Shown: piece after piece, positions 5,698 to 21,808 of the stretch
Layout of the letters: every line of letters starts with the position of its first letter
Position numbering within the stretch: position 1 is the stretch's first letter
Origin: an uncultured Bacilli bacterium
Lineage (GTDB): Bacteria; Bacillota_I; Bacilli_A; RFN20; CAG-826
DNA length: 64,000 nucleotides
NCBI GenBank assembly: GCA_944327845.1
Contig: CALVHN010000001.1
Location: 323,089 to 387,088, forward strand
Direction of reading: 5' to 3'
Translations under genes and position numbers: made by a program
Notes under the pieces: generated by a model
Seen by the model: only the letters and a program-made list of their open reading frames with translations
Databases searched by the model: none
What the model was told of the DNA's origin: nothing

Positions 5698-6558
5698 TTA
5701 TAAATTTTTATCAAAAGCTCCATTTTCTAAATCATATAAGTTAAAAACAGTTGATAATTCATCAAAAGTTTCTTCTAAATTATTCTTCGCACTATTCCAT
5801 CCTTTACCATCTGTTAACCAAACAAATACAAAATTATCAATAGTTTTAGATTCAATAGCTAATGTTTTATAGCTTCTAGCAGTTTCATTTAATTTGGACC
5901 CATCGCTTCCATAAAAATTACATTCAATTCCATATACTTTATTATTCTTTAAAGCCACAAAATCAAAGCGTTTTTCTACCTTATTTTGATTTGAGAGATT
6001 TGAAAGATCAACACAAAATCTTTTTTCTACCTCGCTTAGATACATTTCTTTAAAGTAAGTTTTATTCTTAATAAAGCCAGCTTTTTTTAAATATGATTCT
6101 ACTAAATCTTCCATTGTATGGCCTGTTCTATTCTTTCTACCATTTGAATCTAAACCAACTTCTACTCCAGTCACATAATCAACTAAATTATGTATTATAT
6201 GATTTTGTAATAATTCAAATAAACCAGTTTTCTCCATAAAAATTACATATTCATCCGGTGAATAATTTGGTTTTTCAAAATTAAATTGATAATTTCCATT
6301 TTCATCATTAATTTTAATTTCTTTTTCTCTTTTAGCTAAAAGAATAGGTATAGCTTTAAGTGTATTTGGATATAATTCAATAATCTTTCTAAATTCTTCT
6401 TTAATATTCTTTGAACCAATTAAGCTATTTAATATATTTAATTCAATCTTTATCGATCCAACATTTTTATAAACTTTATCAAAATCAGTATAGTAGTTCC
6501 AAGTTGCAATACTATCCTTCATTGTTTTTAACCATTTGTCAAAATCTCTCACTCTCAT
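5698..6558 (-). CDS. dpnB: DpnII-family type II restriction endonuclease (GATC)
   Basis: MRVRDFDKWLKTMKDSIATWNYYTDFDKVYKNV..LNSLIGSKNI..VDYVTGVEVG(L)DSNGRKNRTG..NETARSYK closely resembles the DpnII endonuclease as I recall it. I chose the Met at 6558 as the start because a GGAGGTA RBS lies at 6559-6565. The track ORF begins at 6591. Confidence 0.8.
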   Translation of the reverse strand: MRVRDFDKWLKTMKDSIATWNYYTDFDKVYKNVGSIKIELNILNSLIGSKNIKEEFRKIIELYPNTLKAIPILLAKREKEIKINDENGNYQFNFEKPNYSPDEYVIFMEKTGLFELLQNHIIHNLVDYVTGVEVGLDSNGRKNRTGHTMEDLVESYLKKAGFIKNKTYFKEMYLSEVEKRFCVDLSNLSNQNKVEKRFDFVALKNNKVYGIECNFYGSDGSKLNETARSYKTLAIESKTIDNFVFVWLTDGKGWNSAKNNLEETFDELSTVFNLYDLENGAFDKNL

Positions 6559-7327
6559 TACCTCCAATATTTTCAATTCTTTTAATAGCAATTTTCATAA
6601 ATTCTTCTTCTTTTTCTATTCCAATAAATTGTCTTTGATTTAATAAAGCAGCAACACCTGTTGTACCACTTCCCATAAAAGGATCTAATATAATATCGTT
6701 CTTATTTGTTGATGCTAGAATGATTCTATCAAGTAAATCAATAGGTTTTTGAGCAGGATGATGCCCAAAAATTTTCTCATTCTTTTTTGGTAACCCCATA
6801 ACCCATACATCTTTCATTTGCTTTCCATTGTTTATTTCTTTCATTAATTGATAATTAAAAGTATGTTTCCCTTTCTTATTTTTCCCTAAAACTTTCCTTG
6901 CCCAAAGAATTGTTTCAGTTGAATTAGTAAAACATCTACAAGCTAAATTAGGAACAGGATTGGGTTTTTGCCAAGTAATATTATTGATAATAGAAAATCC
7001 TTCTAATTCTAATGCTACTCCAATTGTATAAATATTATGAAAAGTACCACTAATCCAAATGCATCCATCGTCTTTTAAAATTCTTTTACATTTTTTAATC
7101 CAACTTCTATTAAATTTAATTTTTTGATTTACATCAATAGATTTATCCCATTCACCTTTATTAACTGAGACTTGTTTTCCTGAATGACAAGATATTCCAT
7201 TGCTTGATAAAAAATATGGTGGATCAGCAAAAATTAAATCTATTGATTTTTCTTCTAATTTATCAATTATTTTAAAACAATCACCTAAATATAATTTACA
7301 GTTATTTAAACTAAAATATTCTTTCAT
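6539..7327 (-). CDS. dpnA: N6-adenine DNA methyltransferase, beta class (DpnA-like, second methylase of the DpnII cassette)
   Basis: Motif IV (FADPPYF) is near the N-terminus and motif I (DPFMGSGTTGVAA) is near the C-terminus. The gene ends with TGA and overlaps the start of the endonuclease gene by 20 nt. Confidence 0.85.
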   Translation of the reverse strand: MKEYFSLNNCKLYLGDCFKIIDKLEEKSIDLIFADPPYFLSSNGISCHSGKQVSVNKGEWDKSIDVNQKIKFNRSWIKKCKRILKDDGCIWISGTFHNIYTIGVALELEGFSIINNITWQKPNPVPNLACRCFTNSTETILWARKVLGKNKKGKHTFNYQLMKEINNGKQMKDVWVMGLPKKNEKIFGHHPAQKPIDLLDRIILASTNKNDIILDPFMGSGTTGVAALLNQRQFIGIEKEEEFMKIAIKRIENIGGNESERF

Positions 7328-7328
7328 A

Positions 7329-8366
7329 TTAATAATTGGTTATTATTACTTCTTCAACATTACCGCGGCCATTTCCATTCGAATTTATCATTCTTTTAGC
7401 ATTAATTATATGAATATTATAATCTTTATATAATTCTCTAATATAATTTGTATTATGGTTGCTTAACATTACTTTTACATTTTTTTCGTCTAATTTTTTA
7501 AAAATACTTGCTAATCTTGCCTGTTCTTCTTTTTTAAAATTATTTTTATCATAAGAAGTAAATGAATTTTTATCATCTAAAGTATCATAAGGCGGATCAA
7601 AATAAACAAAATCATTTTTATTAGCTTTTTTAGATACAGCTTCTTCAAAATCAGAAAGAAGAATAGTTATCTTATTGTTATTAAAATATTTATATAAATT
7701 ATTAAAATTTTCTTCATCAAAAGTTTTAACTTCCTTCTTTTTCCCTGAAGGGACATTAAAATATCCTTTTGAATTAACTCGATATAGTCCATTAAAACAA
7801 GCTTTATTTAAATAAATCATTCTTGCTGCTCGAATATATATTGGTAATGAATTAAAATCTTCTTCCTTATCCATATTTCTAATTTCATAATAATATTCTT
7901 CAGAATGATTTTCCTCATGTTTTCTAAGCTCTTTTTTTAATAGTTCAAAATCTTCGAAGTTTTGAAAACACTTATAAGCGCACATTAATTCAGTATTTGA
8001 ATCACTAATAACTGCACTATTAGGTGCTAAATAAAATAGCAAAGAACCACCTCCAACAAAAGGTTCAAAGTAAGTATTAAATGAATTAGGTAAATATTTA
8101 CAAAGTTTTTCTAATATCTGAGTTTTACCTCCAGCCCATTTAACAAAAGGATGAATTTTTTTATTATTATTAAAAAGAATTAAAGGTTCTACCTTTAATG
8201 AATTAGATATTTTTTCTAAAGTATCTAAGGTGATATTTACTTTCCCTTGCTCGATTTTTGAAATTTGGGGACGATCAATATTACAAAGCGAAGCTAATTC
8301 ATCTTGTGTAATTCCATTTCTTGTACGAATAAATTTTATGTTATTTCCTACTAAATTCTTTAACAT
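7329..8366 (-). CDS. dpnM: Dam-like N6-adenine DNA methyltransferase (DpnM-like) with a fused N-terminal XRE-type HTH
   Basis: Residues 1-65 (IKFIRTRNGITQDELASLCNIDRPQISKIEQGK) form an HTH_3-type domain. This is followed by KWAGGK, motif I FEPFVGGGSLLF, and motif IV YFDPPYD. Confidence 0.85.
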   Translation of the reverse strand: MLKNLVGNNIKFIRTRNGITQDELASLCNIDRPQISKIEQGKVNITLDTLEKISNSLKVEPLILFNNNKKIHPFVKWAGGKTQILEKLCKYLPNSFNTYFEPFVGGGSLLFYLAPNSAVISDSNTELMCAYKCFQNFEDFELLKKELRKHEENHSEEYYYEIRNMDKEEDFNSLPIYIRAARMIYLNKACFNGLYRVNSKGYFNVPSGKKKEVKTFDEENFNNLYKYFNNNKITILLSDFEEAVSKKANKNDFVYFDPPYDTLDDKNSFTSYDKNNFKKEEQARLASIFKKLDEKNVKVMLSNHNTNYIRELYKDYNIHIINAKRMINSNGNGRGNVEEVIITNY

Positions 8367-8451
8367 GAAATTAAATTATCATAAATGTATAATAAAATCC
8401 ACATTTGATTTATAAATATTTTTATAATGTCTAATAACTAATCTATAAAAT

Positions 8452-8955
8452 TTAATTATTTTTATCAAACAAACTCTTAGGATTCATATAAAAATCCATC
8501 CCAAACACCTCTTTTTTTATAATTTCTCCATCAAGTTTAGTCGATAAAGTAATTGTATCTATATGATTAAAACCTAAGCGATGGTAAAGCTTCATGGCAT
8601 TTATATTTGATGGAGAAACTTCTATTTGAACTCTAGGTCCATTTTGTTTTTTCTTAACAATTTCAATAATATTAGATAAACAATAACTTCCTAAACCTTT
8701 ATTTCGATATTCATCTTTAATATATAAATATTCAATATTATTAAAATATCCATATTTTTCATTTACAAAAACAAATCCAGCAATATCGTCATTATAGCAA
8801 ACTAAGTAACTAATACATTCTGGATCAAGCATCCTTCTTATATCTTCTAAAATATCATTGTCACTAGCTTCAACAAGTTGAGATTTCCAAAAATCTTTTA
8901 ACATCTTAGCGACTTCAGAGATGTCTTTTAATTCTATTTTCTTTAAACTTTTCAT
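8452..8955 (-). CDS. GNAT family N-acetyltransferase
   Basis: It has the acetyl-CoA-binding pattern RNKGLGS and a GNAT-like beta-strand layout. I chose the ATG at 8955 as the start because an AGGAGGA RBS lies at 8961-8967. The track ORF starts at 9021. Confidence 0.7.
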   Translation of the reverse strand: MKSLKKIELKDISEVAKMLKDFWKSQLVEASDNDILEDIRRMLDPECISYLVCYNDDIAGFVFVNEKYGYFNNIEYLYIKDEYRNKGLGSYCLSNIIEIVKKKQNGPRVQIEVSPSNINAMKLYHRLGFNHIDTITLSTKLDGEIIKKEVFGMDFYMNPKSLFDKNN

Positions 8956-9143
8956 ATACTTCCTCCTATTAAAAACCAAAAAAAATAGTGGTTTAGCATT
9001 GTTTTTTAAATTATAACACATTTTTTAGTAATATTCTATTTGCATCAAGTCTAATCCTTATAAAGAAACATTAAATTTTTGAAGGATATTTTTTATCTTC
9101 CTCTTTTCTAAAATAAACATTTCTATTATTATTTTTATCTAGT

Positions 9144-10145
9144 ATGGAATATCAAATTAAAGACTATAAATCAAAACTTAACTTAAAAGAAACCTTTGTT
9201 GCTATTAAATTTTTAAAAGATAATTTTGAAAATTTATTATCTAATTCATTAAATTTAAAAAGAGTGAGCTCCCCTCTTTTTGTTTTAAAATCTACTGGAT
9301 TAAATGATGATTTAAATGGTTATGAAGAACCTGTTAGATTTAATTTAAAATCCTTAGAAGGAGATGTTGAAATAGTTCAATCACTTGCTAAATGGAAAAG
9401 AAATGCTTTAAAAGAATATGGTTTTAATGTATATGAAGGTTTATATACTGATATGAACGCCATTAGAAAAGATGAATTCGTTGATAATATTCATTCAATT
9501 TATGTTGATCAATGGGATTGGGAATTAATTATTAAAAAAGAAGATCGAAATTTAGATTTTTTATTTAATAAAGTTAATAAAATTTATCAATGCTTATTAG
9601 ATTTAGAAAAGTTAATAAATGCAAAATTTCCAATATTAAAAAATAAATTACCCGCTGAGATCTCATTTATTTCTACTAATGAATTATTTAATTTATACCC
9701 ATATCTTTCTTCAAAAGAAAGAGAAAATAAATATTTAAAAGAACATAAAGCAGCATTTATTTATAAAATCGGCTATCCATTAAAGAATAATATGCCACAC
9801 GATGGGAGAGCTAGCGACTATGATGATTGGAATTTAAATGGTGATATTTTAGTATATGATGAAGTTCTTTCTTCAGCACTCGAATTATCTTCAATGGGAA
9901 TTAGAGTAGATAAAGATTCCTTAGTTAAACAAGTAACTTATAAACATGAAGAAAATAAATTAAATACTAAATATCATCAAGATATTTTAAATGATAGATT
10001 GCCTTTAACTATTGGAGGCGGCATAGGTCAATCAAGATTATGTTTATTCTTTTTAGAAAAAGCTCATATTGGAGAAGTTCAAGCTTCATTATGGAATGAG
10101 CATGAATATGAATTAGCTAAAAAATTAGGAATAAAGTTCTTATAA
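9144..10145 (+). CDS. asnA: Aspartate-ammonia ligase (asparagine synthetase A)
   Basis: 333 aa. The sequence is AsnA-like throughout: LNLKRVSSPLFV, DNIHSIYVDQWDWE, GGGIGQSRLCLFFL. Confidence 0.85.
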   Translation: MEYQIKDYKSKLNLKETFVAIKFLKDNFENLLSNSLNLKRVSSPLFVLKSTGLNDDLNGYEEPVRFNLKSLEGDVEIVQSLAKWKRNALKEYGFNVYEGLYTDMNAIRKDEFVDNIHSIYVDQWDWELIIKKEDRNLDFLFNKVNKIYQCLLDLEKLINAKFPILKNKLPAEISFISTNELFNLYPYLSSKERENKYLKEHKAAFIYKIGYPLKNNMPHDGRASDYDDWNLNGDILVYDEVLSSALELSSMGIRVDKDSLVKQVTYKHEENKLNTKYHQDILNDRLPLTIGGGIGQSRLCLFFLEKAHIGEVQASLWNEHEYELAKKLGIKFL

Positions 10146-10660: not shown

Positions 10661-11923
10661 TTATCTATTTAAAGGAAATTTATTAGTTAATTCTATTACT
10701 TTATTTTTTATTTCTTTTAATTTTTCAGGATTATTTTTATTTATTAATGCTTGATCAATTAAATTACCTACTTTAATAAATTCTTTTTCTTTAAACCCTC
10801 TTGTAGTCATAGCTGGTGTACCAAGTCTTATTCCACTACAATATGCTGGTTTTTCAGTATCGCCTGGGATTGAATTTTTATTACATGTGATATTCACAGA
10901 TTCCAATATTTTTTGAGCATCAAGTCCTGTAATTCCTAATTTTGATTTAACATCAACCATTAAAAGATGATTATCTGTGCCACCACTTATTATAAAATAT
11001 CCTAAATTTTGTAAGGTTTTTGCAAGGATTTTAGAATTTTTAACAACATTTTCTATATATATTTTATAACTAGGATCAAGAGCTTCTTTAAATGCAACAG
11101 CCTTAGCTGCTATTACATGCATTAATGGTCCCCCTTGGCATCCTGGAAATACTTCTTTATCAATCTTTTTAGCTAACTCTTCATTATTTGTTAAAATAAT
11201 TCCACCTCTTGGTCCTCTTAAAGTTTTATGAGTAGTTGAAGTAACAACATCTGCGAAAACAATAGGATTTTGATGAAAACCAGTTGCACAAAGTCCTGCA
11301 ATATGGGCCATATCTACTAATAAATAAGCACCTACTTCATCAGCGATTTCTCTAAACTTTTTAAAATCAATCTTACGAGAATAAGCACTTGCTCCGGCAA
11401 TAATTAATTGAGGTTTAACTTCTTTTGCTATTTTTTCTACTTTTTCATAATTAATTAATCCAGTTTCAATATCTACTCCATATGTATAAGCTTGATAATC
11501 TTTTCCAGAAAAAGATAATTTATAGCCGTGAGTTAAATGTCCACCAGCATCTAAACTCATTCCTAGAATTTTATCACCTTCCTTGATTAAAGCTCTAATT
11601 GCTGCCATATTAGCTTGAGATCCAGAATGAGGTTGAACATTTGCAAACTTTGCATTAAATAATTTTTTAAGTCTTTCAATCGCTAAAGTTTCGACTACAT
11701 CGACAAATTCACAACCTCCATAATATCTTTTGCTTGGATATCCTTCAGCGTATTTATTAGTGAAAATACTTCCTTGAGCTTCTCTTACTGCTAAAGATAC
11801 AAAATTTTCACTAGCAATAAGTTCAATGTTTTCATCTTGCCTCTTAGTTTCATTTTTTAATGCTTCATATATTTCATAATCACCATTCATTAATTCTAAA
11901 TTATCAATCATAGATGTATCCAT
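10661..11923 (-). CDS. glyA: Serine hydroxymethyltransferase
   Basis: 420 aa with the motifs [20 protein letters not shown] and the PLP-lysine region [14 protein letters not shown]. Confidence 0.95.
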
Positions 11924-11929
11924 TCCTTG

Positions 11930-14900
11930 TTATTTTTTAGTTTTAAAATAAACAATGATATCTTCAAATGTTTCAATATTTATATCATTATCAATTTTAT
12001 TAATTGTTGCTCCTTCAATTAAATCAATATTCATTTCAATACTTTTATCAAAAGCGTTATTTTTAATAGTAATATTACTTCCTTGAGGAATATGGAGTTC
12101 TTCTAATCTCTTACAGCCTTTAAAACTATCAATATCAATCTCTTTTACACAATTAGATAATTTAATAATTGCTAAAGAAGTACAATTTTCACATACATGT
12201 TTTGGAAGAATTTTAATTTCAGATTCAGATAAATCTAATGTATATAAAGAATTGCAATCTTCAAATAACCATGAATATAATTCTTTAACACCTTTCCCAA
12301 ATCTAACTTCATCTAAGAAATCACAATTAGAAAAAGCATCATAACTAAAAGCAACTAGAGTTACACCGTATTTTTCTTTAAGTTCATCACTATCAAACAT
12401 TTCAATATTTTTATCTAAAATATTATCTATAACAAGCTCATTATAGTTAATAATACTTCCAGAAATTGATTCTTGATAAAAATCTTTATTATCAAAATTA
12501 ATAACGCCATTACTAATTAAAGTTATATTCCTACCAAGAAAATACTTCTTTAATTCTTCTTCGCTTTCAATTGGAGTATATTCATTTGTTAAATTAAAAC
12601 AATAAGAACTTAATATAATTTCTTCACTATTTATTTTAACTTCTTTTAATTCTATTAAATTAGAAAAAGCTAAGTTCTCAACTTCTTTTAAGCTAGCAGG
12701 TAAATTAATTATTTTAACTTGATTTGAATTAGTAAAAGCAAACTTAGAAACTTTTTTAAGATTATTTAATTTCTCTAAATCTATTTTTTCTAAATATTTG
12801 CTTCCAAAAAACATAAATGAAGGAATTTCTTCTAAGCTAGAAGAAAGATTTAAAGAACCTACATCCCTTAATCCTGTTCCAATAAATAAACCAATTTTTA
12901 TTTTTTTATAATTTTTATTTTCAATAGTGCTAAAATCAATCTTTTCTAAAGAAGCACAATTTTCAAAAGCAAATTGTCCAATTTCTAAAACATCATCAGT
13001 TACTTCTAAAGATTTTGGTAAATTAATTTCTTTTAAAGAATGACAATCTTCTACAAAAGATTCACCTAATTTCTTTACGCTATCAGGAATAATTATTCTT
13101 TTAATGTAATTACAATCATAAAAAGAAAATTCACCAATAGATTCTAATTTAGATGGTAAATGTATATTTCTAAGATTTATAAAACCATTAAAATATAAAG
13201 GTTCTTTAATATCTTTTACATTATTAGAAAGATCAATAGATCGAATATTTTCAATTATTTCATCCTGTTTTAATAATTGTCTTAAGTCATTTTCATTTAT
13301 ATTTTTATCTAAATAATATAAAGCAATGATAGGTTTAAAATAATTATTATTTTTCTCAATATTTTGAAGAGGTAATAAGAAAGTATTAAATTTAGTTATT
13401 TCATTAATTTTATAATATGTTCCATCAATTTTAGGATAATTAAATATAATCTCTTCTTTACATTTATAATTAGTTTCATCAATAAAATTTAAAACATTCA
13501 TAAAGTTTGGAAATGCATTAATTGAATAATTAGCCAAGTTAATCTCTATTTTATTATTTCCATAATATAAATAATTTAATAATTCTCGATTATTCATTTC
13601 TTTTATCTTTTTATTGTTTGTTGCTAAATTTAATAAATTATTGCTTTGATTTAAAGCATTTATTTCATTAATTAACTCAGTATTTTGATAAAATTCCTTG
13701 TAAAACTCAACTTTTTCATTAAAATTAAGAGCACAATAAGAATCTCTTAAGCAAGATAACATTAAAAATATTTTATTATTATTTTCAACTAAAAATATTG
13801 ATTTAAGAGCTAAATGATGTTCGGTATTTGAACTAAATAAATATAAATAATCATCATAATCATATATATCATCTTCAGACATTATCGATAAAAATAAAGT
13901 ATACATAATAATAAATACTTTATCTTTATTATATAAAGCAGATAAAGTTACCGATTGATCATCTTTAATTGAAGATTCACTAGTTATTTTATTTAAAAAA
14001 GATAATATTTCTTTAAAAATATATAGAGTTTTATCTTTTCTATTTTCATCTTCTTTTAAATTATTTAATAAATCATTAAATATTTTATATATTTTTCCTT
14101 TATCTTTATCTAAATAGAATAAATAATCTATGTTTTCACCAAGTCTATTTAAATCACCATCTAAAATTACAGGTAAATAATGAAGAATATCAGAAAATTT
14201 AATTGGATTATTTGAGATATCTTTAAGCATATAATTATATATATTTTGAAGATTTTCATTTAAATGTTCTCTTGATTTAAAAAAGATAAATCTCGCTGAA
14301 TAATAATCACTAAATATTTTTTGATAAAATTTATTCTCATTATCAATTAAGTATGTGTTTTCCTTGATCTTTTTAATTTTATTTTCATCTATTCGATCAA
14401 TTACTAATGAATCTATTGTGTCAAAACCTGCACCTCTAATTGCAACATATTGCAAAAATTCATAGTTTTCAATATTATCTTTAAAATCACTATAATTTAT
14501 TTGAATTAAATCAAATATTGATCTTGATAATAAATTATCTAATTTAATTTCATATTTGTATTTTGGATCAATATTATGTTTAAATTTTTGAATTACTGTA
14601 TTTGCTAAAAATGGATTAATTGAATTATCAAAAGTAATTAATTTAAATGCTTCTTTAATTTTTTCTAAACCATTATCTATAATAGTAATAATTTTTGCGT
14701 TCTTTAAATTATCAATAAATTTATAAGCTTCAGCTTCGCTAAAATCTCTTACTTTAAATACTTTATTAAAACCTAATGTTTCCTTATCTATTTCTCGAAA
14801 AAAATCGCTTTTAGAATTTTCTCTACATCCAATAATGATTGTTGTATTTTTATTTAAAAGAGTATTAATTCCTTTTCTAGGTAATATGTTAGCTAAATTC

Positions 14901-15898
14901 TTTTTTATCTCATCTTTATTTATTTCATCCCAGCTATCAAAAATAAAAAAATTATTATTATATTTTAATAATTTCTTATAGATTTTATTGCTTATTTGAT
15001 TAAAATCCTTGCAAAATCCACATAAAACTTGAAATATTTTAGAATCTAAGATTTTAATTATTGATTTATTCATTGCTTCTTCAAGACTAACACTATGATC
15101 ATAACTAAAGTCAAATATTAAAGGAAAATATGGATTATCTTTCTTTTTAGAATTAATGAATATGTTACATAAATCAATATAAGTTTTAATTAATAATGTA
15201 GATTTTCCACTTCCTGCATCTCCAATTACAAGAAAGCTTTTTTCTTCTTTTTCACCTTTAATTTCTTCTAAAATACTATTTCTTTTCGCTTCCTTTAAGT
15301 TATTTATATTAACTGAATTATCATTAATTGAAATTTCACCTACTAGTGTCTTTTTAGCAATATAAAATTTATTAAATTCTTCGATTGCTTGTTCTGTTAC
15401 ATTTTCTTTTGAGGTTAAATGAGAACAACTTAAAACTTTATTCGCATTAAGAATTTTAAAATATCTTTTTTTAAATATATTTTTAAAGTTCTTAAAATAT
15501 ATCGTTTTAGAAATTGATAATAATAACTTATCCCAGGTAAAAGTTAAAGCAATACATAAAAGAACAAAAATAACTGAAACAATGTCTAATCCTGAATTAA
15601 CATTAAATAATATCTCAACTAATGCTTTTGCAATTCCTATTTCATCTTCATCAAAAAGATCTAAAAATGTTTGTATTACTGCTTTAGTTGTTCCAAATAT
15701 TATTAAAGTTAAAATTACTGCATGACCAATTCCGAAAATAAGCCTATACCATAATTTTTTGCTTCTTAATTCAAAATTTTTATCATCTATTAATTTATGT
15801 TTAACAAAAATTATTTCACATGTAATTTGAATTATTAAAAGTAAAAGATTAATAAATAGTAACAAATACCTTTCCATAACAATAAAATAATAAAACAA
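11930..15898 (-). CDS. Membrane-anchored NACHT/STAND-type P-loop NTPase with C-terminal BspA-type leucine-rich repeats (NLR-like)
   Basis: 1322 aa.
- Hydrophobic helices at about aa 10-125.
- Walker A GDAGSGKST at aa 226-234 (nt 15197-15223).
- Walker B-like FFIFDSWDE at about aa 317-325, followed by IIIGCRE.
- C-terminal ~400 aa of repeats with the pattern F..C..L..I.LP.S...I....F. Confidence 0.7.
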   Translation of the reverse strand: MFYYFIVMERYLLLFINLLLLIIQITCEIIFVKHKLIDDKNFELRSKKLWYRLIFGIGHAVILTLIIFGTTKAVIQTFLDLFDEDEIGIAKALVEILFNVNSGLDIVSVIFVLLCIALTFTWDKLLLSISKTIYFKNFKNIFKKRYFKILNANKVLSCSHLTSKENVTEQAIEEFNKFYIAKKTLVGEISINDNSVNINNLKEAKRNSILEEIKGEKEEKSFLVIGDAGSGKSTLLIKTYIDLCNIFINSKKKDNPYFPLIFDFSYDHSVSLEEAMNKSIIKILDSKIFQVLCGFCKDFNQISNKIYKKLLKYNNNFFIFDSWDEINKDEIKKNLANILPRKGINTLLNKNTTIIIGCRENSKSDFFREIDKETLGFNKVFKVRDFSEAEAYKFIDNLKNAKIITIIDNGLEKIKEAFKLITFDNSINPFLANTVIQKFKHNIDPKYKYEIKLDNLLSRSIFDLIQINYSDFKDNIENYEFLQYVAIRGAGFDTIDSLVIDRIDENKIKKIKENTYLIDNENKFYQKIFSDYYSARFIFFKSREHLNENLQNIYNYMLKDISNNPIKFSDILHYLPVILDGDLNRLGENIDYLFYLDKDKGKIYKIFNDLLNNLKEDENRKDKTLYIFKEILSFLNKITSESSIKDDQSVTLSALYNKDKVFIIMYTLFLSIMSEDDIYDYDDYLYLFSSNTEHHLALKSIFLVENNNKIFLMLSCLRDSYCALNFNEKVEFYKEFYQNTELINEINALNQSNNLLNLATNNKKIKEMNNRELLNYLYYGNNKIEINLANYSINAFPNFMNVLNFIDETNYKCKEEIIFNYPKIDGTYYKINEITKFNTFLLPLQNIEKNNNYFKPIIALYYLDKNINENDLRQLLKQDEIIENIRSIDLSNNVKDIKEPLYFNGFINLRNIHLPSKLESIGEFSFYDCNYIKRIIIPDSVKKLGESFVEDCHSLKEINLPKSLEVTDDVLEIGQFAFENCASLEKIDFSTIENKNYKKIKIGLFIGTGLRDVGSLNLSSSLEEIPSFMFFGSKYLEKIDLEKLNNLKKVSKFAFTNSNQVKIINLPASLKEVENLAFSNLIELKEVKINSEEIILSSYCFNLTNEYTPIESEEELKKYFLGRNITLISNGVINFDNKDFYQESISGSIINYNELVIDNILDKNIEMFDSDELKEKYGVTLVAFSYDAFSNCDFLDEVRFGKGVKELYSWLFEDCNSLYTLDLSESEIKILPKHVCENCTSLAIIKLSNCVKEIDIDSFKGCKRLEELHIPQGSNITIKNNAFDKSIEMNIDLIEGATINKIDNDINIETFEDIIVYFKTKK

Positions 15899-16399
15899 CT
15901 TGGTGTTAATATTAAGTAAAATATCAAATTTGTTTTTATTCTTTTAGTTTGTGGTTATTTTTTTAATAACTATATGATTACTTCTTTCTCTTAATCTATA
16001 ACAATAGCCTATAATTTTTTATAGCATTAGCGTGATACAATAGTCTAGTTCGTATTTAATATTCATCAACAATCTTCTTTTAAAACCTTTATTTATTTTG
16101 ATAATCGTTTTTTTAACTATAGAAAAACGTCTCTTTTTCAAATGTAATTATTGGGGGATTTCTTCAAAAATATTGATACTTTTTAAATGTTATTTTTTTC
16201 ATTATTCTGAGAGCTTTAAAAATCTATTTTAAGTGGATTTCCTGGCTTTGTGAATATATAACTTAGATATAAATTATGGCAGTTCATTAATAGACAACAC
16301 TTTGAAAAGGAAATAACCGTTCGAAAAGTTCATAGAAAACTATAGATATAAAATCATGGCACTTGGTTCACATGTAACTTCGGCATTTACATCAACAAA

Positions 16400-16456
16400 T
16401 AAAAAAGAGCCTCCTACGATATAGTTTGAACCTATACCATGGAAGGCTTTTTTTAT
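16400..16456. terminator. Bidirectional rho-independent terminator in an ORF-free region
   Basis: The structure reads AAAAAA-GAGCCTCC-tacga-TATAG-tttgaac-CTATA-ccat-GGAAGGCT-TTTTTTT. It is an extended hairpin with an internal loop, with A-runs on one side and T-runs on the other. Confidence 0.55.
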
Positions 16457-16744
16457 CTTTACGAATGTTTGAACTCGAAGTACTATTGCGGTAGTTTGAA
16501 CTTTTATGGGTATTTTTGAGTATTTTCGATGGTTATAATGGGAACATAAATTTTAGGATGCGACATAGTGAGCACGTATTGGTAATTTTTGGTATAAAAA
16601 GCTATAATGATGAGGCATTATAGGCGTTTTTCAAAGATTGTCCTTACTGTACGCCTTAAATGCCAAATTTTCTATGTTTTGTACGCCTTAAATACCTTGA
16701 CAAAATCATTTTTTTATGAACCGACATTGTAAAAAGATACAAAT

Positions 16745-17110
16745 TTATTTGAATAAAGCAACAAGAGCAACTATTAACCCTGCTAATCCTATCAGCGTTC
16801 CAACAGCAAAAGAAATGTAGCCAAATATTTTCGATTTTTTTGACTCATTTTTTGCAAGTTCTTCCGATTTTTTTGATTCTTCAAGTTGTTGATTTAATAA
16901 ATTGTTTTGTTCAATTGTTGCACTTAGTTGATTCGATAGCAAAACATTTTGTTCTTCAAGTTTCTTATACATAGGGCTTTCTATTTGCTGTTTCATTTTA
17001 AATTCGTCAATTCGACGCAATTTATCAGCTTCAGCCATGGCGCTTCGAGCAGAATTGATTTTTGAAGTATCGACCATATCTAAATAAATATCATCATTAA
17101 ACATATTCAT
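16745..17110 (-). CDS. Tail-anchored coiled-coil membrane protein, unknown function
   Basis: 121 aa. About 95 aa are charged heptad-like sequence (QQ..LEE..K), followed by a single C-terminal TM helix IFGYISFAVGTLIGLAGLIVALVALF. It is divergent from the nuclease gene with a 56-bp spacer. Confidence 0.6.
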   Translation of the reverse strand: MNMFNDDIYLDMVDTSKINSARSAMAEADKLRRIDEFKMKQQIESPMYKKLEEQNVLLSNQLSATIEQNNLLNQQLEESKKSEELAKNESKKSKIFGYISFAVGTLIGLAGLIVALVALFK

Positions 17111-17166: not shown

Positions 17167-18417
17167 ATGAGTGAAAAAAGAGTAATTCGCGAGCCAGTTT
17201 ATTTTCCTAAGGCAAATGTAGATACCACTAAATACTTATTTATCATCAGCAAAATGTGTGGGCCATTTGCTTTTATGACAATAACTGAGACCGGGTTAAA
17301 GAAGAGCATAATGGATGCGACCGGTGGAGTTAGATTCTTTTTGAAAGAAGCAATGCTTCATGATTATAATGAACAAAAACAGGGACCAGAAAATAAAGTG
17401 ATTGTCCCAGCTCATTTTATTTTAGAGAACACAATAATCGACACAAAAGCCTCTTTATATAGACCTATAACTAAAAAAGGTGATCCAAGAATTTGGTTTT
17501 ACGATCTTAAAAATTATGTCTCAGTTTCTGATTTACTACTACTCTTTTCAGTAGATAAAGAAATATATGTTGTCAATTTATCAAACAAGAAATTATCCGA
17601 TTCAATAATCAATAAAGGTTTTGTTTACGAACAAATAATAAAATCAAGAATAGAAGCAATTAATGCAAGAGATAAATTATTAAGATTACTTAACGAATTG
17701 CATGAAAAGGGATGGGTTAAAGCAACAACTCACGGAGACACAGCTGTTGGAGACACATTAGAACATGAATTGGGAATAAGCAGAAACAATTCCACTCAAC
17801 CAGATTACAAAGGCATCGAATTAAAAGCTTCGAGAATAAATCGTGGCGGCCAAAGAAGGCAAAGAACAAGAATTACTCTTTTTGCTAAGGTACCTGACGA
17901 AGGAATGACATATAGAGAAATTTTGGAGTCTTATGGGAAGGTCCAAATTCCAGATAGACAAACACAACCTAGATTGCAACTATATGACACTTTTAAAGCC
18001 AGCAGAGCCAATGCATATAATCTGTTTTTATTCCCAAACGAATCAAACGAAAGATTAGAGATACTTTATTCTAAATCAGGAGACATTCATGATCCGGCCA
18101 ATAGGTATGTATCGTCTTGGAAATTAGAAAATTTAGCTAATTCATTAAAAGAAAAACATAAAGAGACTTTCTTTGTTAAAGCTAAATCCAAACTTATAGA
18201 TGGCGAAGAATATTTTTTGTACGAAAGTGTCGTCCACACCTCTAATCCAAACACCTCTGTACTATTCGCTTTATTTGAAGAAGATAAAATTACACTCGAT
18301 TTATTGATTCACAAAAAAGAAGATGGTTCTACAAGAGACCACGGTGCACTATTTAAGATGTGGCCACAAGATCTCCCACTACTTTTTGGTGATGAAGAAA
18401 TTATTGATTTGAATTAA
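17167..18417 (+). CDS. Type II restriction endonuclease, MutH/Sau3AI/MvaI-BcnI-like PD-(D/E)XK core with an extra ~180-aa N-terminal domain
   Basis: GDTLEHELGISRNNSTQPDYKGIELKASR aligns with the MutH-type motif (D..G.ELK). The candidate catalytic residues are D213 (17803-17805), E218 (17818-17820) and K220 (17824-17826). The gene is convergent with, and overlaps, a C5-methylase gene. Confidence 0.65.
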   Translation: MSEKRVIREPVYFPKANVDTTKYLFIISKMCGPFAFMTITETGLKKSIMDATGGVRFFLKEAMLHDYNEQKQGPENKVIVPAHFILENTIIDTKASLYRPITKKGDPRIWFYDLKNYVSVSDLLLLFSVDKEIYVVNLSNKKLSDSIINKGFVYEQIIKSRIEAINARDKLLRLLNELHEKGWVKATTHGDTAVGDTLEHELGISRNNSTQPDYKGIELKASRINRGGQRRQRTRITLFAKVPDEGMTYREILESYGKVQIPDRQTQPRLQLYDTFKASRANAYNLFLFPNESNERLEILYSKSGDIHDPANRYVSSWKLENLANSLKEKHKETFFVKAKSKLIDGEEYFLYESVVHTSNPNTSVLFALFEEDKITLDLLIHKKEDGSTRDHGALFKMWPQDLPLLFGDEEIIDLN

Positions 18418-19750
18418 TAGTTTTTAATATTTCCAAAGCAATAGCTTTAGATAGTAATGGAGGAACAGCGTTACCTACTTGAGTATATTGTGGTATCTCT
18501 GTCCTTCTTAACAATCCTCCAGTAGTTCTTTTGCCATAGAAAACAAAACTATCGTCAAAAGATTGAAATCTCGCTAATTCTCTAACGCTAAAAGTCCTAT
18601 TTTCAGTCGGATGAATATAATCATCAGCAATTGTTACAACTGTTGGACTAGGCTTATCGGAATATAATCTTGTCCTAACGTTTTTCTTGGTTAAAAGTAC
18701 ATCAACGAGTTCTTTACTAAGATTCTTGTTTTTATAAATTTTAATTATCTCTTCGCGAGTTTTATTAAGATTATTTGAACATAAGTTTAATAGATTTGGT
18801 AAGTTTGTTAAATCAACACCATTCAAAATAATACTTTTTCTCAATTCTGCAGTTGTTTGGCCTTCCTCGTACAATGAGAATCTTTCAACAACTAAATCTG
18901 AAATATTGGATAACTCCTGATTTTTAGGAGCGCTTATCTTAATTGGCTTACCTGTCAATAAGGAAGGTGTTCTTCCGTTGGAAGATTCTAATTCGAATTT
19001 TGATTTTCTATGTGACTTAGAAGGATGTAATAATAAATCACCTATTGCTTCCATAGCTGATATGCGTTGTTCTTTTTCGAAAATTGGTTTTGGATAAGAT
19101 GGGGCCTTTAGTCCTTTTTTATACGCAATAAAAATAGCTCTTCTTCTATTTTGCGGAACGCCATAATCAGAAGCCGTTAAGATTTTAGGAGACACCACAT
19201 CATATCCTGCTAAATTTAATTCAGATTCTAATAAATGAGGTGCAAGAGAATCTTTGCCAAAGTATTGAATTCCAGTTAAGCCAACAAAACCTTCTAATTT
19301 TGTATCAGTGAATCCTTCAACGTTTTCCATTACAACGTAATTAGGGCGTAGCTCATTAATTACTCTTACGTATTCTCTAAATAAGAAATTTCTTGGATCG
19401 TCTTTGCCTTTTCTTTCTCCGCTTCTAGAGAATCCTTGACATGGAGGACCTCCAAATATGGCGTCAATTTGGACATTTTCAAGGCCTTTATATTTTTCCA
19501 GTTTTTTAATTGATTCTAAAATAAATTTACCACTCAAATCTTTAATATCAGCACGATAGTAAAATGTGTCAATTCCTTGTTTAATTCCCAATTGTTCATG
19601 TCTTTTCTTATAGGTTATTTCCACTTCTTTATTAATATCGCTAGAAAAGGCAATGTCAAAACCAGCTTGAAGCAAGCCTTCACTCATGCCTCCAGCTCCA
19701 CAAAACAAATCAATTGCAATAGGTTTATAAACAAATTTTCTTTCCATCAT
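18401..19750 (-). CDS. DNA (cytosine-5)-methyltransferase
   Basis: The motifs appear in canonical order: I DLFCGAGGMSEGL, IV GGPPCQGFS, VI ENVEGF, VIII QNRRRA, X GNAVPP. Confidence 0.9.
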   Translation of the reverse strand: MMERKFVYKPIAIDLFCGAGGMSEGLLQAGFDIAFSSDINKEVEITYKKRHEQLGIKQGIDTFYYRADIKDLSGKFILESIKKLEKYKGLENVQIDAIFGGPPCQGFSRSGERKGKDDPRNFLFREYVRVINELRPNYVVMENVEGFTDTKLEGFVGLTGIQYFGKDSLAPHLLESELNLAGYDVVSPKILTASDYGVPQNRRRAIFIAYKKGLKAPSYPKPIFEKEQRISAMEAIGDLLLHPSKSHRKSKFELESSNGRTPSLLTGKPIKISAPKNQELSNISDLVVERFSLYEEGQTTAELRKSIILNGVDLTNLPNLLNLCSNNLNKTREEIIKIYKNKNLSKELVDVLLTKKNVRTRLYSDKPSPTVVTIADDYIHPTENRTFSVRELARFQSFDDSFVFYGKRTTGGLLRRTEIPQYTQVGNAVPPLLSKAIALEILKTINSNQ

Positions 19751-19849
19751 AATATATATATTACCTAATTGTTTTTTAAAAGTCCAGGGTTATTATAAAA
19801 TCTTCTATTTTATTCCTAATAATTCATTTTAGAAGAGCTTTATTTAGTC

Positions 19850-20176
19850 TCAAATCTTCTCGGTTGCCACTTTTCTTAAGTCATCAATCGAGCATCCGAA
19901 TATCTTTGAAAACTTAAATAAAAAATCCAGAGTCGGAAGCGTGTTACCCATTTCGTAGTGCCTGACCCTAGGGTAGGAATAGCCGGTAGCGCTGCATATC
20001 TCTACCCTTGAAATATATTGCTGTTCTCTTATTGAACGGATAAGAATTCCCAATAATAATTTGCTGATATTGCCGTATATGTTTCTTCTAAAGAAGATCT
20101 TTTCCCATTTCAAATAGCACATCTTATATACACCACCATAGAAACTCGCATATTCCTCATAACCTGACCTTGCCAT
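19850..20176 (-). CDS. XRE-family helix-turn-helix protein (candidate controller or antitoxin)
   Basis: ISRVEICSATGYSYPRVRHYEMGNTLPTLDFLFKFSKIFGCSIDDL fits the HTH_3 pattern. The gene lies upstream of the C5-methylase on the same strand. Its true start is uncertain. Confidence 0.55.
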   Translation of the reverse strand: MARSGYEEYASFYGGVYKMCYLKWEKIFFRRNIYGNISKLLLGILIRSIREQQYISRVEICSATGYSYPRVRHYEMGNTLPTLDFLFKFSKIFGCSIDDLRKVATEKI

Positions 20177-20411
20177 ATCTAATTTTATTAACAGTGGCTT
20201 TCTCTGCTTCGTTTAGTCCATCCATGTACTCAGCATATAAACTTTTGATTCTCTTAGCGATAACATAATTGTCCGGTCTTTCGAGAGTTCTGCTTATCCC
20301 ATTGCTTTCAAAATTGCTGATACACTTTTCCACCTCGAATAATGTGTATTTAAGAAAGTGCCTGAATCCCTTATCTCCTCTAGCAAGTACAAAACCATAA
20401 TCTGTAATCAT
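20157..20411 (-). CDS. Small hypothetical protein (84 aa) overlapping the following HTH gene by 20 nt
   Basis: The ORF is GC-richer than the genome background and overlaps the downstream ORF as in a translationally coupled pair. I recognised no family. Confidence 0.4.
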   Translation of the reverse strand: MITDYGFVLARGDKGFRHFLKYTLFEVEKCISNFESNGISRTLERPDNYVIAKRIKSLYAEYMDGLNEAEKATVNKIRYGKVRL

Positions 20412-20460
20412 CTTTCGTCATCCTCCTATATGAAGGAATTAAATAATTATGAAAATAAGT

Positions 20461-20587
20461 CAAGTTATTTATAACTTGTTGAATTCGGCTGTCAACACGG
20501 CTGTTCGGGTTCGAACCCTGTTTTTGTTATCGCAAAGTTGACATTTTTGGCAAATTTAAAATTGTTATGTCAAGTGGTTTGCGATAA
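20461..20587. promoter_or_regulatory. Cluster of palindromes and operator-like boxes upstream of the 84-aa/HTH pair
   Basis: - CAAGTTAT-tt-ATAACTTG at 20461-20478.
- Direct CGGCTGT x2 at 20486 and 20498.
- 12-bp palindrome GGGTTCGAACCC at 20507-20518.
- Large inverted repeat TTATCGCAAA-g-TTGACA (20527-20543) ... TGTCAA-gtgg-TTTGCGATAA (20568-20587).
- A third TTATCGCAAA at 20661-20670. Confidence 0.45.
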
Positions 20588-20642
20588 AGAAATTACGATA
20601 TTTTATATATACTAAAGTATATATAAAGTATATATAAATATA

Positions 20643-20677
20643 CAAAAAACACCGAATTTTTTATCGCAAATCGGTGT
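20643..20677 (-). terminator. Possible terminator after tRNA-Arg(CCT)
   Basis: On the minus strand ACACCGA-(15-nt loop)-TCGGTGT is followed by TTTTTT. The large loop makes this call weak. Confidence 0.35.
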
Positions 20678-20690
20678 CAAATTCAGGAAA

Positions 20691-20767
20691 TGGCGTCCCC
20701 AGTTGGAGTCGAACCAACAGCATTTCGCTTAGGAGGCGAACCCTCTATCCGACTGAGGTATGGGGAC
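20691..20767 (-). tRNA. tRNA-Arg (anticodon CCT)
   Basis: Hand-folded cloverleaf of 77 nt. The acceptor is GTCCCCA/TGGGGAC, the anticodon stem is TTCGC/GCGAA with loop CTCCTAA, the T-arm is GTTGG-TTCGACT-CCAAC, and CCA is encoded. Confidence 0.9.
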
Positions 20768-20776
20768 TTAATAAAA

Positions 20777-21508
20777 TTATATACTATTTTTAGTCTTTTT
20801 AATTAATTCACTATAATAAATATCTTTAAATAAGTTAGCACTTAAAGGAACAATAGAAACAATACTATTATTAAAACAATACCAATCATCATCTTTAGAT
20901 TCAAAATTATAGTTTATTTCTCTTTCTATAAGAAAAGTGTTACCACCTACTTTTGAATAATGTTTATCTTTTCTATTAGATAGTCTTACTACTTTTATAC
21001 CTTTAACTTCATCACCTAATGGTAAATTAACATTTAATAAATATTTAAAAGATAATAAATCATTATCAATAATATAATCCATTATTCTATTAAATTCTTT
21101 TTTAAATAAATCAAAATTGAAAGGACAAGAAAAAGCAATAGCTTTTTTATTTTGTCTTAAAGCTTCTAAAGCCGCTCCAATTGTTCCAGAATAAATTGAA
21201 TCATAAGTTAAGTTTTCTCCTTCATTAACTCCACTTACAACTAGATCAAAATCTATATTTAAACAATATAATCCAAAAAATACACAATCAACGGGTGTGC
21301 CTTTAACGTAATAATAATCTTCACCTACTTCTTTAAATTCAATTTCTTTTCCAATTGTTATTGCACTACTTTTTCCACTCATTTTATTAAAAGGAGAAGC
21401 AATAACAACTCTTTCTGCATAATTTAAAAGTAAAACTTTTGTTAATTTAATTGCTTCACTTTCATATCCATCATCATTTACTAGTAATATATTTTTAAAT
21501 TTCTTCAT
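20777..21508 (-). CDS. surE: 5'/3'-nucleotidase SurE
   Basis: N-terminal ILLVNDDGYESEAI and the motifs GTPVDCV and SGVNEGENL are typical of SurE. Confidence 0.85.
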   Translation of the reverse strand: MKKFKNILLVNDDGYESEAIKLTKVLLLNYAERVVIASPFNKMSGKSSAITIGKEIEFKEVGEDYYYVKGTPVDCVFFGLYCLNIDFDLVVSGVNEGENLTYDSIYSGTIGAALEALRQNKKAIAFSCPFNFDLFKKEFNRIMDYIIDNDLLSFKYLLNVNLPLGDEVKGIKVVRLSNRKDKHYSKVGGNTFLIEREINYNFESKDDDWYCFNNSIVSIVPLSANLFKDIYYSELIKKTKNSI

Positions 21509-21550
21509 GATTTTATAATATCAAATTAAAAGCAAAATTAATTATTAAAG

Positions 21551-21570
21551 AAAAGAAAGCGCTTTCTTTT
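21551..21570. promoter_or_regulatory. Perfect 20-bp palindrome AAAAGAAAGCGCTTTCTTTT (cre-like core) between divergent genes
   Basis: The core GAAAGCGCTTTC is shared with the cre-like site at 5325-5338. It lies 43 bp upstream of the surE start and about 100 bp upstream of the 44-codon ORF. Confidence 0.4.
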
Positions 21571-21673
21571 AAAAAATCACTTGTCTTAAATGTAACTTAG
21601 TATTATTATAAACATCCAACTCGAGATAGACCGATCCATCTATGTGTAGAGTTAGTCTCAAAGGAGGTAAAAT

Positions 21674-21808
21674 ATGAAGAGCTTAAAGAAAAAATTAAGA
21701 CTTCATGATCGTCCTTTAAATAAAGCAAACCCAAACAGAAATGAAAATGGATTTATGCAGTTTATAGACGATTATGTTGCATACAGCGATTTATATCGCG
21801 GTATCTAA
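21674..21808 (+). CDS. Small protein, 44 aa (MKSLKKKLRLHDRPLNKANPNRNENGFMQFIDDYVAYSDLYRGI), not in the ORF track
   Basis: A strong RBS AAAGGAGGT lies 6 nt before the ATG. The frame is open to TAA at 21806-21808 and a terminator hairpin follows immediately. Confidence 0.55.
   Translation: MKSLKKKLRLHDRPLNKANPNRNENGFMQFIDDYVAYSDLYRGI

Follow-up and report, generated by a model that had tools for sequence, protein, structure and literature searches.

Bacterial NACHT proteins and the gene examined

Bacterial NACHT (bNACHT) proteins defend against phage, combining N-terminal effectors, which include TIR domains, with C-terminal repeat sensors, which include leucine-rich repeats (LRRs) (10.1101/2022.07.19.500537). 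A 2026 survey of signal transduction ATPases with numerous domains (STAND) lists 'TM' as a domain label in the legend of an extended-data figure (PMC13581612). Here we analyzed a window of 64,000 nucleotides (the whole stretch of DNA considered, assembly GCA_944327845.1, contig CALVHN010000001.1, positions 323,089 to 387,088) from an uncultured Bacilli bacterium, in which a preliminary description made from the sequence had proposed a membrane-anchored immune sensor with the order effector, STAND NTPase, repeat sensor. That order is the same as the logic of bNACHT and Avs proteins. Our favored reading, to which we assign a probability of roughly 55%, is that the gene encodes a cytoplasm-facing, membrane-anchored NACHT STAND protein resembling the nucleotide-binding LRR receptors (NLRs), probably a single-gene sensor-effector directed against phages or other mobile elements and acting on the membrane.

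The NLR-like gene is one unbroken open reading frame (ORF) on the minus strand (11930..15898, from the ORF listing and its translation); the plus-strand translation of the same interval is full of stops, and the minus-strand reading is open. The uninterrupted frame had been correctly described, though with no strand given, and its length of 1322 aa had been counted from a TTG at 15898, where the likely start is instead the ATG at 15877, giving 1315 aa. This ATG was chosen by gene callers on 17 of 17 public metagenome contigs encoding an identical 1315-aa protein. Hence the coding sequence of the transmembrane (TM)-NACHT-LRR protein is taken as 11930..15877 (minus strand), from the ATG at 15875-15877 to the stop at 11930-11932, with an alternative in-frame TTG start at 15896-15898 that would add seven residues. 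Residues are numbered here from the ATG, that is, seven lower than in the preliminary description, and all features of the protein lie on the minus strand. The window is very AT-rich, with TGA read as stop, and the gene has a GC content of 20.4% compared to 26.4% for the window; because about one in ten random codons is a stop at ~20% GC, an open frame of 1315 codons is not a chance occurrence. Compared with an allele from another sample (L001, 98.4% identical), the gene has 37 synonymous and 26 non-synonymous codon differences, and the resulting ratio of non-synonymous to synonymous polymorphism (pN/pS ~0.16) indicates that it is under purifying selection.

A rare family with a NACHT-type NTPase

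An exhaustive phmmer search with residues 1-870 against 1.84 billion cluster representatives returned 16 matches, ~11 of them full-length (1284-1471 aa, ~30% identity). Full-length relatives align to the window protein from residue ~136 through the C-terminus, LRR included, with invariant columns at every NTPase motif (alignment A1). Other routes yielded less: a word-index homologue search with the full protein returned overwhelmingly LRR proteins, with a single 98% allele sharing the N-terminal 870 residues, and the same kind of search with the core alignment (A2) gave no match, presumably because low-complexity AT-rich words crowded the candidates. A single-sequence scan of genome contigs gave no match either, and an alignment-based scan then recovered two family loci in 185,579 species genomes. 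Only LRR-only matches that are not family members (L008, L009) were found in a scan of viral contigs, which gave no sign of a phage-borne family, and no NCBIfam model matched the window protein. Named hosts are Anaeroplasma (Mollicutes) and an uncultured Bacilli metagenome-assembled genome (MAG), the other sequences being unassigned metagenome contigs. The family is very rare and patchy, comprising ~11 clusters from Anaeroplasma and uncultured Bacilli MAGs.

The NACHT-type P-loop NTPase domain occupies residues 206-392 (14702..15262) and is matched by the Pfam NACHT model (PF05729) at residues 216-389, where the full protein reaches 27.5 bits and residues 1-870 alone reach 28.6 bits, marginally above the gathering score of 26.7. 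This threshold was also exceeded by six relatives, with 30.1-47.4 bits (P0011, P0014, P0015, P0017, P0018, and the N-terminal ORF of L006), and the NPHP3_N and nSTAND models scored slightly under threshold in the window protein. Walker A (GDAGSGKST, residues 219-227, 15197..15223) has G219, G222, G224, and K225 invariant in 11 family members. Walker B (FFIFDSWDE, residues 310-318, 14924..14950) has the NACHT-style D-x-x-D-E acidic pair, with D314, S315, D317, and E318 invariant, and aligns to DGFDE of NOD2, while the following IIIGCRE segment (residues 347-353, 14819..14839) carries an invariant sensor-1-like arginine, R352, aligned to the arginine of 'TSRP' in NOD2. These three motifs, all named in the preliminary description, are present and fall at family-invariant columns. 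A D-[GAS]-x-D-E Walker B and a conserved sensor-1 arginine past the following strand are reportedly markers of the NACHT clade, a view said to go back to Koonin and Aravind in 2000. Preceding the domain is a family-conserved segment (residues 136-205, 15263..15472, alignment A1) with the motifs LP..K..C.Y and F..LYI.KK and invariant L143, K147, F168, I173, and K175, which was modelled as helices plus a beta-hairpin.

While a single-sequence search of the PDB with residues 1-870 gave no match, the best PDB match of the family core profile (A2) was the nucleotide-binding domain of rabbit NOD2 (5IRM/5IRL, E 3.8e-4), in an alignment that covers both Walker motifs (for Walker B, DSLDE opposite DGFDE) as well as the sensor-1 arginine. 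Foldseek comparison of an AlphaFold2 (AF2) model of the core (pLDDT 69.9, pTM 0.71) ranked NOD2 highest (1.6e-7), then Avs4 (1.3e-4) and EfAvs5 (3.5e-4), with the generic AAA+ proteins Cdc6/ORC and Clp lower; the best five rows, representing three structures (NOD2, Avs4, Avs5), were all STAND proteins. Global TM-scores were low (~0.29), as expected for a multi-domain model, and it is the Foldseek ranking rather than the superposition that we take as evidence. The order of invariant Walker A and B motifs, helical region, and LRR is likewise that of STAND proteins. The earlier NACHT/STAND assignment agrees with the PF05729 match, with NOD2 as the best PDB match by profile, and with NOD2, Avs4, and Avs5 as the best matches by predicted fold, and the identification of the window NTPase as a STAND NTPase of NACHT type is, from profiles and modelling, well supported.

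The N-terminal membrane module and its exchange for TIR or TIR-like domains

Hydropathy analysis (Kyte-Doolittle, 19-residue mean) gave three hydrophobic TM segments in the N-terminus, so that the hydrophobic helices reported earlier are there, numbering three and not four. After TM helix 1 (residues 5-23, 15809..15865, mean 2.51) comes a loop that is basic (7 K/R vs 3 D/E), after TM helix 2 (residues 46-64, 15686..15742, mean 2.05) an acidic one predicted to lie outside (2 K/R vs 6 D/E), and after TM helix 3 (residues 96-114, 15536..15592, mean 2.37) a juxtamembrane segment of strongly basic character (8 K/R vs 1 D/E). These charge ratios and the positive-inside rule place the N-terminus outside, loop 1 inside, and loop 2 outside, and the NTPase and LRR are therefore predicted to face the cytoplasm. 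No good lipobox was found in the N-terminus.

The first 130-230 residues cannot be aligned across the family, and residue ~136 of the window protein is the point from which its two N-terminal types become alignable. Seven members are of the TM type (the window protein, its 98% allele, P0008, P0013, P0014, and the L007 and L006 proteins) and have a common layout of TM1, basic loop, TM2, acidic loop, TM3, and basic juxtamembrane segment; P0019 has two segments above the TM threshold, and P0011, apparently truncated at its N-terminus, has one. TIR or TIR-like members with no hydrophobic segment are P0010, P0012, P0015, P0017, and P0018, plus the proteins of L003 and L004, both Anaeroplasma-type loci. 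P0018 matched TIR_2 (E 2.2e-16, 60.9 bits vs a threshold of 28) and ThsB_TIR (24.1 vs 21.2), P0017 was slightly sub-threshold for TIR_2 (E 1.6e-5, 25.8 bits vs 28), and the remaining non-TM N-termini had no match in Pfam. All seven nonetheless align at an (I/L)FI.Y first beta-strand, with a conserved Glu in six of the seven, and their joint profile had TIR domains (tir-1/SARM1, TLR) as its best PDB matches, weakly (E 0.04). When modelled with AF2, at low confidence (pLDDT 62), the P0010 N-terminus adopted a flavodoxin-like fold, for which the fold search returned flavodoxins and TIRs intermixed and about equal. By profile match, TIR identity is established for one clade, that of P0018, and judging from the aligned motifs it is plausible for the other non-TM types.

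In about half of the family, a TIR or TIR-like domain thus stands where the other members carry the three-TM module, and in a rough neighbor-joining tree of the core the TIR-type clades are nested among TM-type sequences. That TIR fills the same slot on a conserved switch-sensor chassis argues more strongly than any other observation that the TM module delivers an output and does not simply anchor the protein, and this positional swap, as read from the alignments, is strong evidence for an effector. The same kind of effector exchange has been described in bacterial NACHT and Avs proteins.

The helical middle region and the leucine-rich repeats

Residues 393-870 (13268..14701) constitute a helical middle region of ~480 aa with no Pfam match, defined by alignments A1 and A2 and mostly helical in the AF2 model, where pLDDT is 80-92 across model residues ~380-580 (protein residues ~512-712). 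Family-invariant motifs are NPF (421-423), TYL (508-510), YQ (518-519), KD (638-639), S..RDS (708-713), and RE.LN (764-768). The C-terminal BspA-type LRRs of the preliminary description are borne out: LRR_5 (PF13306) matched residues 871-1315 in three stretches (E 1.4e-45, 154.7 bits), and ~14 BspA-type repeats were counted by eye. Block 1 (residues 871-1100, 12578..13267) has ~9 repeats, with the best LRR_5 stretch at residues 877-983; a non-repeat insert of ~70 aa follows (residues ~1101-1170, 12368..12577), which aligns across the family and has a nearly invariant D1132; block 2 (residues 1171-1315, 11933..12367), matched by LRR_5 and by LRR_8 (residues 1205-1243), has ~5 repeats and the invariant motifs W1203-x-FED and H1227..N1231-C.

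Two further proteins combine LRR_5 repeats with other domains. The metagenomic protein P0002 (1758 aa) couples them to a reverse-transcriptase domain (PF00078) and matches the window protein in the LRR only (26% identity, 29% coverage). At L004, a 1119-aa protein (18423-21782, plus strand) ~5 kb from the NLR homologue has TIR_2 and an LRR_5 array (E 7e-199) without an NTPase domain. These bacteria seem to use BspA-type LRRs repeatedly, as a building block of several putative immune genes.

Genomic neighborhoods

The gene had been described as lying between two restriction-modification (RM) systems, and both do flank it, with intervening genes on either side. Upstream, a C5 methyltransferase (MTase) and MvaI/BcnI restriction endonuclease (REase) pair (17167-19750, minus strand, 33% GC) is separated from the NLR-like gene by an 870-bp non-coding gap (15878-16744) and an ORF of 121 aa with a coiled coil and a C-terminal hydrophobic tail anchor (16745-17110, minus strand); on the other side is a DpnII-type system with two MTases and an REase (5698-8366). 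Beyond the MvaI/BcnI pair are an overlapping pair of genes for 84-aa and 108-aa (HTH_3) proteins (19850-20411, minus strand, 37% GC) and a tRNA-Arg (20691-20767). The mosaic GC content (20%, 33%, 37%) together with the tRNA flank fits a variable island, and no convincing att-like direct repeat of the tRNA-Arg 3' end was found between 11.9 and 20.7 kb. The HTH_3 pair resembles a toxin-antitoxin or mobile-element regulator pair, and close to it and to the tRNA-Arg we noted a tRNA T-arm-like fragment, GGGTTCGAACCC, at about 20486-20522 (plus strand), which may be an integration scar.

The 121-aa gene, whose product has only weak EssA/SseC similarities in Pfam, is kept on the same strand upstream of the NLR-like gene in every contig reaching that far and is absent at the loci of relatives. 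Contigs L011 and L015 end ~1.23 kb upstream of the NLR-like gene, at the boundary of the 121-aa and MvaI genes, and L001 ends 921 bp upstream, while other assemblies continue; these three independent assembly breaks 0.9-1.2 kb upstream suggest that the MvaI/C5-MTase system is strain-variable. In an exact-protein look-up, every contig carrying the window's glyA allele also had the NLR-like gene. Within the 870-bp gap, no promoter or terminator signal above chance was detected, and the search for RNA families gave only a sub-threshold match to the sau-19 sRNA (29 vs 80 bits); the gap contains a 17-nt direct repeat, TGTACGCCTTAAAT[G/A]CC, at 16648 and 16680, and a hairpin with a T-run near 16398-16466.

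Neighbors differ at each of seven independent loci, that is, there is no conserved synteny. A complete Pycsar system (8268-9484, minus strand; PycC E 1.2e-77, PycTM E 8e-25) lies immediately upstream of the 1610-aa TM-type member at L007, with DUF3800 and RHS genes downstream. L004 encodes a YhcG PDDEXK nuclease, an adjoining RyR-domain protein, a trypsin-like protease, and the TIR_2-LRR_5 protein, and L003, from an Anaeroplasma bactoclasticum MAG, has a RyR-domain protein and a P-loop protein with a match to a TIR effector of CBASS. The RyR-domain protein (~720 aa), for which PADLOC has no model, adjoins the TIR-like homologue in both L003 (4591-6744) and L004 (7259-9436), on its downstream side at one locus and its upstream side at the other, and could represent either a linked partner or a conflict gene of its own. 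Near the family member at L006 are DUF4238 and an RHS toxin. This member is split by a frameshift next to an A-run just past the NPF motif, identically in the two samples L006 and L005 (~11100-11230), and may be a pseudogene or a phase-variable copy, unless both assemblies contain the same error. Instead of a fixed core position devoid of defense association, which according to the preliminary description would have argued against an immune role, the family shows varying surroundings, for several members with Pycsar, TIR-type genes, or a PDDEXK nuclease nearby.

Elsewhere in the window, a second very large ORF (36311-40282, plus strand, 1323 aa) has a signal-peptide-like N-terminus, is N/S/D-rich, had no match in Pfam, NCBIfam, or PADLOC, and may encode a surface protein of unknown family. 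Its near-equal length had raised the suspicion of a paralog of the NLR-like protein, and comparison showed the two to be unrelated. No rRNA genes were found in the window.

Proposed mechanism and alternative explanations

Under the favored reading, an ADP-bound NACHT module, the helical domains, and the LRR would keep the resting protein an inactive monomer in the membrane. The BspA-type LRR solenoid, together with the helical region, would bind an invader-derived ligand, upon which nucleotide exchange would open the NACHT module and drive oligomerization, a step taken from characterized Avs, bNACHT, and NLR proteins. The oligomer would then bring together the three-helix modules of its many protomers, which would form a pore or lesion, and the depolarized or permeabilized membrane would abort the infection; this last step draws on analogy with PycTM, CBASS TM effectors, and plant coiled-coil (CC)-NLR channels. 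Sister proteins would use this sensor and switch to cluster a TIR or TIR-like domain instead, leading to NAD+ cleavage or signaling. Immune role, ligand sensing by the LRR, oligomerization, and membrane disruption are all inferred from such comparisons, and the organism of the window is presumably wall-less. A more specific version, which we put forward tentatively and judge possible but rather doubtful, is a pre-inserted 'resistosome', in which an LRR ligand would trigger a NACHT-LRR ring whose three-TM modules (e.g., 15-30 helices) combine into a defined pore or ion channel, a counterpart, in the group of Anaeroplasma and uncultured Bacilli, of plant CC-NLR channels on a chassis alternatively wired to a TIR NADase or signaling.

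Several observations weigh against the favored reading. In PADLOC-DB 2.0, which includes Avs, bNACHT, TM effector, and other models, nothing matched the full window protein at E <= 0.01 and nothing, TM effectors included, matched its TM module at E <= 10; the TM modules of four of five relatives were also without a match at E <= 10, that of L007 giving only a stray BrxL match (E 0.003). The NACHT score is marginal here and sub-threshold in several relatives, and the TIR assignment of the P0010, P0012, and P0015 types, based on motifs and a model, is only suggestive. The LRR is fairly conserved family-wide, with many invariant residues, whereas surfaces that bind pathogens are often expected to be hypervariable. 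As for genomic context, glyA, asnA, and a GNAT gene stand between the NLR-like gene and the DpnII-type system, loci L019 (P0008) and L020 (P0018) have no defense neighbors, just housekeeping or unrecognized genes, and the presence of defense or conflict neighbors at 5 of 7 loci (two RM systems in the window, and L007, L003, L004, and L006) is a qualitative count from a small sample without a background rate.

The three-helix anchor could, moreover, be a mere tether, holding an immune STAND protein where it surveys phage entry, injected proteins, or membrane-associated assembly, with the activity located elsewhere (NTP consumption, sequestering of a phage protein, or an unlinked partner). The module's dissimilarity to the TM effectors catalogued in PADLOC speaks for such a role, as do the interpretation by Kibby et al. 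(10.1101/2022.07.19.500537) that TM regions of bacterial NACHT proteins serve in sensing and the tail-anchored coiled-coil protein encoded upstream on the same strand, conserved in all contigs that reach it. However, this neighbor is missing at the relatives' other loci, the TM module fills the exact TIR slot of sister proteins, and Pfam finds no other effector-like domain in the 1315 residues; we therefore consider a tether rather unlikely. Slightly less probable still is a signaling or housekeeping STAND protein without immune function, a membrane-associated ATP-dependent switch whose LRR mediates endogenous protein-protein interactions, for example in regulation or the quality control of membrane proteins. 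Numerous STAND clades lack a defense association (198 of 589 were classed as having one, PMC13581612), glyA and asnA in the window and CysS, CarD, and ParA-like genes in L020 are housekeeping neighbors, and both the conserved LRR and the pN/pS of 0.16 would suit this reading. Nonetheless, such a role sits poorly with an extremely patchy distribution without synteny, TIR-bearing sisters, adjoining Pycsar, RM, and TIR-type genes at several loci, a frameshifted copy in two assemblies, and a gene GC content of 20% against a window mean of 26%. Finally, LRR_5 comprises the repeats of BspA-type surface proteins (Pfam description; PMC2843621) and the first hydrophobic segment is readable as a signal sequence, both of which would suit a surface-exposed BspA-like adhesin or host-interaction protein anchored by its N-terminal helices, comparable to the BspA-type surface proteins that other host-associated microbes possess. 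We regard this as highly improbable, as the P-loop NTPase between helices and LRR needs cytoplasmic ATP, the positive-inside charges place the C-terminal part inside, there are three hydrophobic segments rather than one and no good lipobox, and TIR-type sisters without TM segments or signal peptide keep the same LRR.

Significance and comparison with known systems

If the favored reading is true, the protein would represent an NLR-like receptor integral to the membrane, with a TM effector fused directly to the NACHT switch, tying STAND oligomerization to membrane permeabilization within one polypeptide. It would add an immune gene for gut bacteria (Anaeroplasma and uncultured Bacilli) with a barely described defense repertoire, and BspA-type LRRs, usually read as surface adhesins, would act as cytoplasmic sensors. 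The natural TIR-for-TM swaps on one chassis offer a clean system for how NLR oligomers trigger different outputs, and the family has been overlooked by current defense-annotation models.

The pairing of a TM N-terminus with an LRR sensor had been considered unlike any characterized bacterial system. That claim was slightly too strong, since LRR sensors, TIR effectors, and TM regions are already catalogued in bacterial NACHT and STAND proteins, although no characterized membrane-anchored NACHT-LRR appeared in the literature searched: full-text searches returned no paper linking BspA-type LRRs with NACHT or describing such a protein. What is already known is the general kind, namely bacterial NACHT/NLR-related and Avs STAND proteins with swappable effectors and repeat sensors. 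New are a rare family missing from PADLOC, the combination of an N-terminal three-TM module with NACHT and BspA-type LRR_5, a large family-specific helical region, and a natural three-TM/TIR swap.

The closest likeness is to the bNACHT proteins (10.1101/2022.07.19.500537; bNACHT16 having the LRR C-terminus), which share with the window protein the tripartite order, the D-x-x-D-E Walker B, the sensor-1 arginine, and the single-gene format, and with its family a TIR as alternative N-terminal module. In contrast, the window N-terminus is a three-TM bundle, whereas Kibby et al. treat TM regions as C-terminal or inserted sensors; the window sensor consists of BspA-type LRR_5 repeats split by an insert into two blocks, preceded by a ~480-aa family-specific helical region without a Pfam match; and the hosts are Anaeroplasma and uncultured Bacilli rather than Proteobacteria, the window protein having no PADLOC match. 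With NOD2 (5IRM/5IRL) the family shares the succession of NACHT, helical domains, and C-terminal LRR, but identity is only ~11-12%, the global TM-score 0.29, and the LRR subtype different, and unlike animal NLRs the window protein has no CARD or PYD adaptor domains and is an integral membrane protein.

Avs/AVAST proteins (Avs4 8DGF, EfAvs5 9JAP), the second and third fold matches, resemble the window protein in their STAND NTPase and swappable N-terminal effectors, and ligand-induced oligomerization is the accepted mechanism of Avs activation. Their sensors, however, are mostly TPR-like helical repeats, and the window NTPase scores as NACHT rather than as an Avs clade, with no PADLOC match to Avs. 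The Pycsar effector PycTM and the 2TM and 4TM effectors of CBASS share the proposed logic of activation-driven clustering of short helical membrane modules, and a genuine PycC-PycTM pair lies beside one family member; the window protein has no sequence similarity to them (PADLOC TM effectors), and its TM module is covalently fused to the sensor. In plant CC-NLR resistosome channels such as ZAR1, the helices enter the membrane after assembly, and only then, whereas those of the window protein are predicted to be membrane-inserted before activation.

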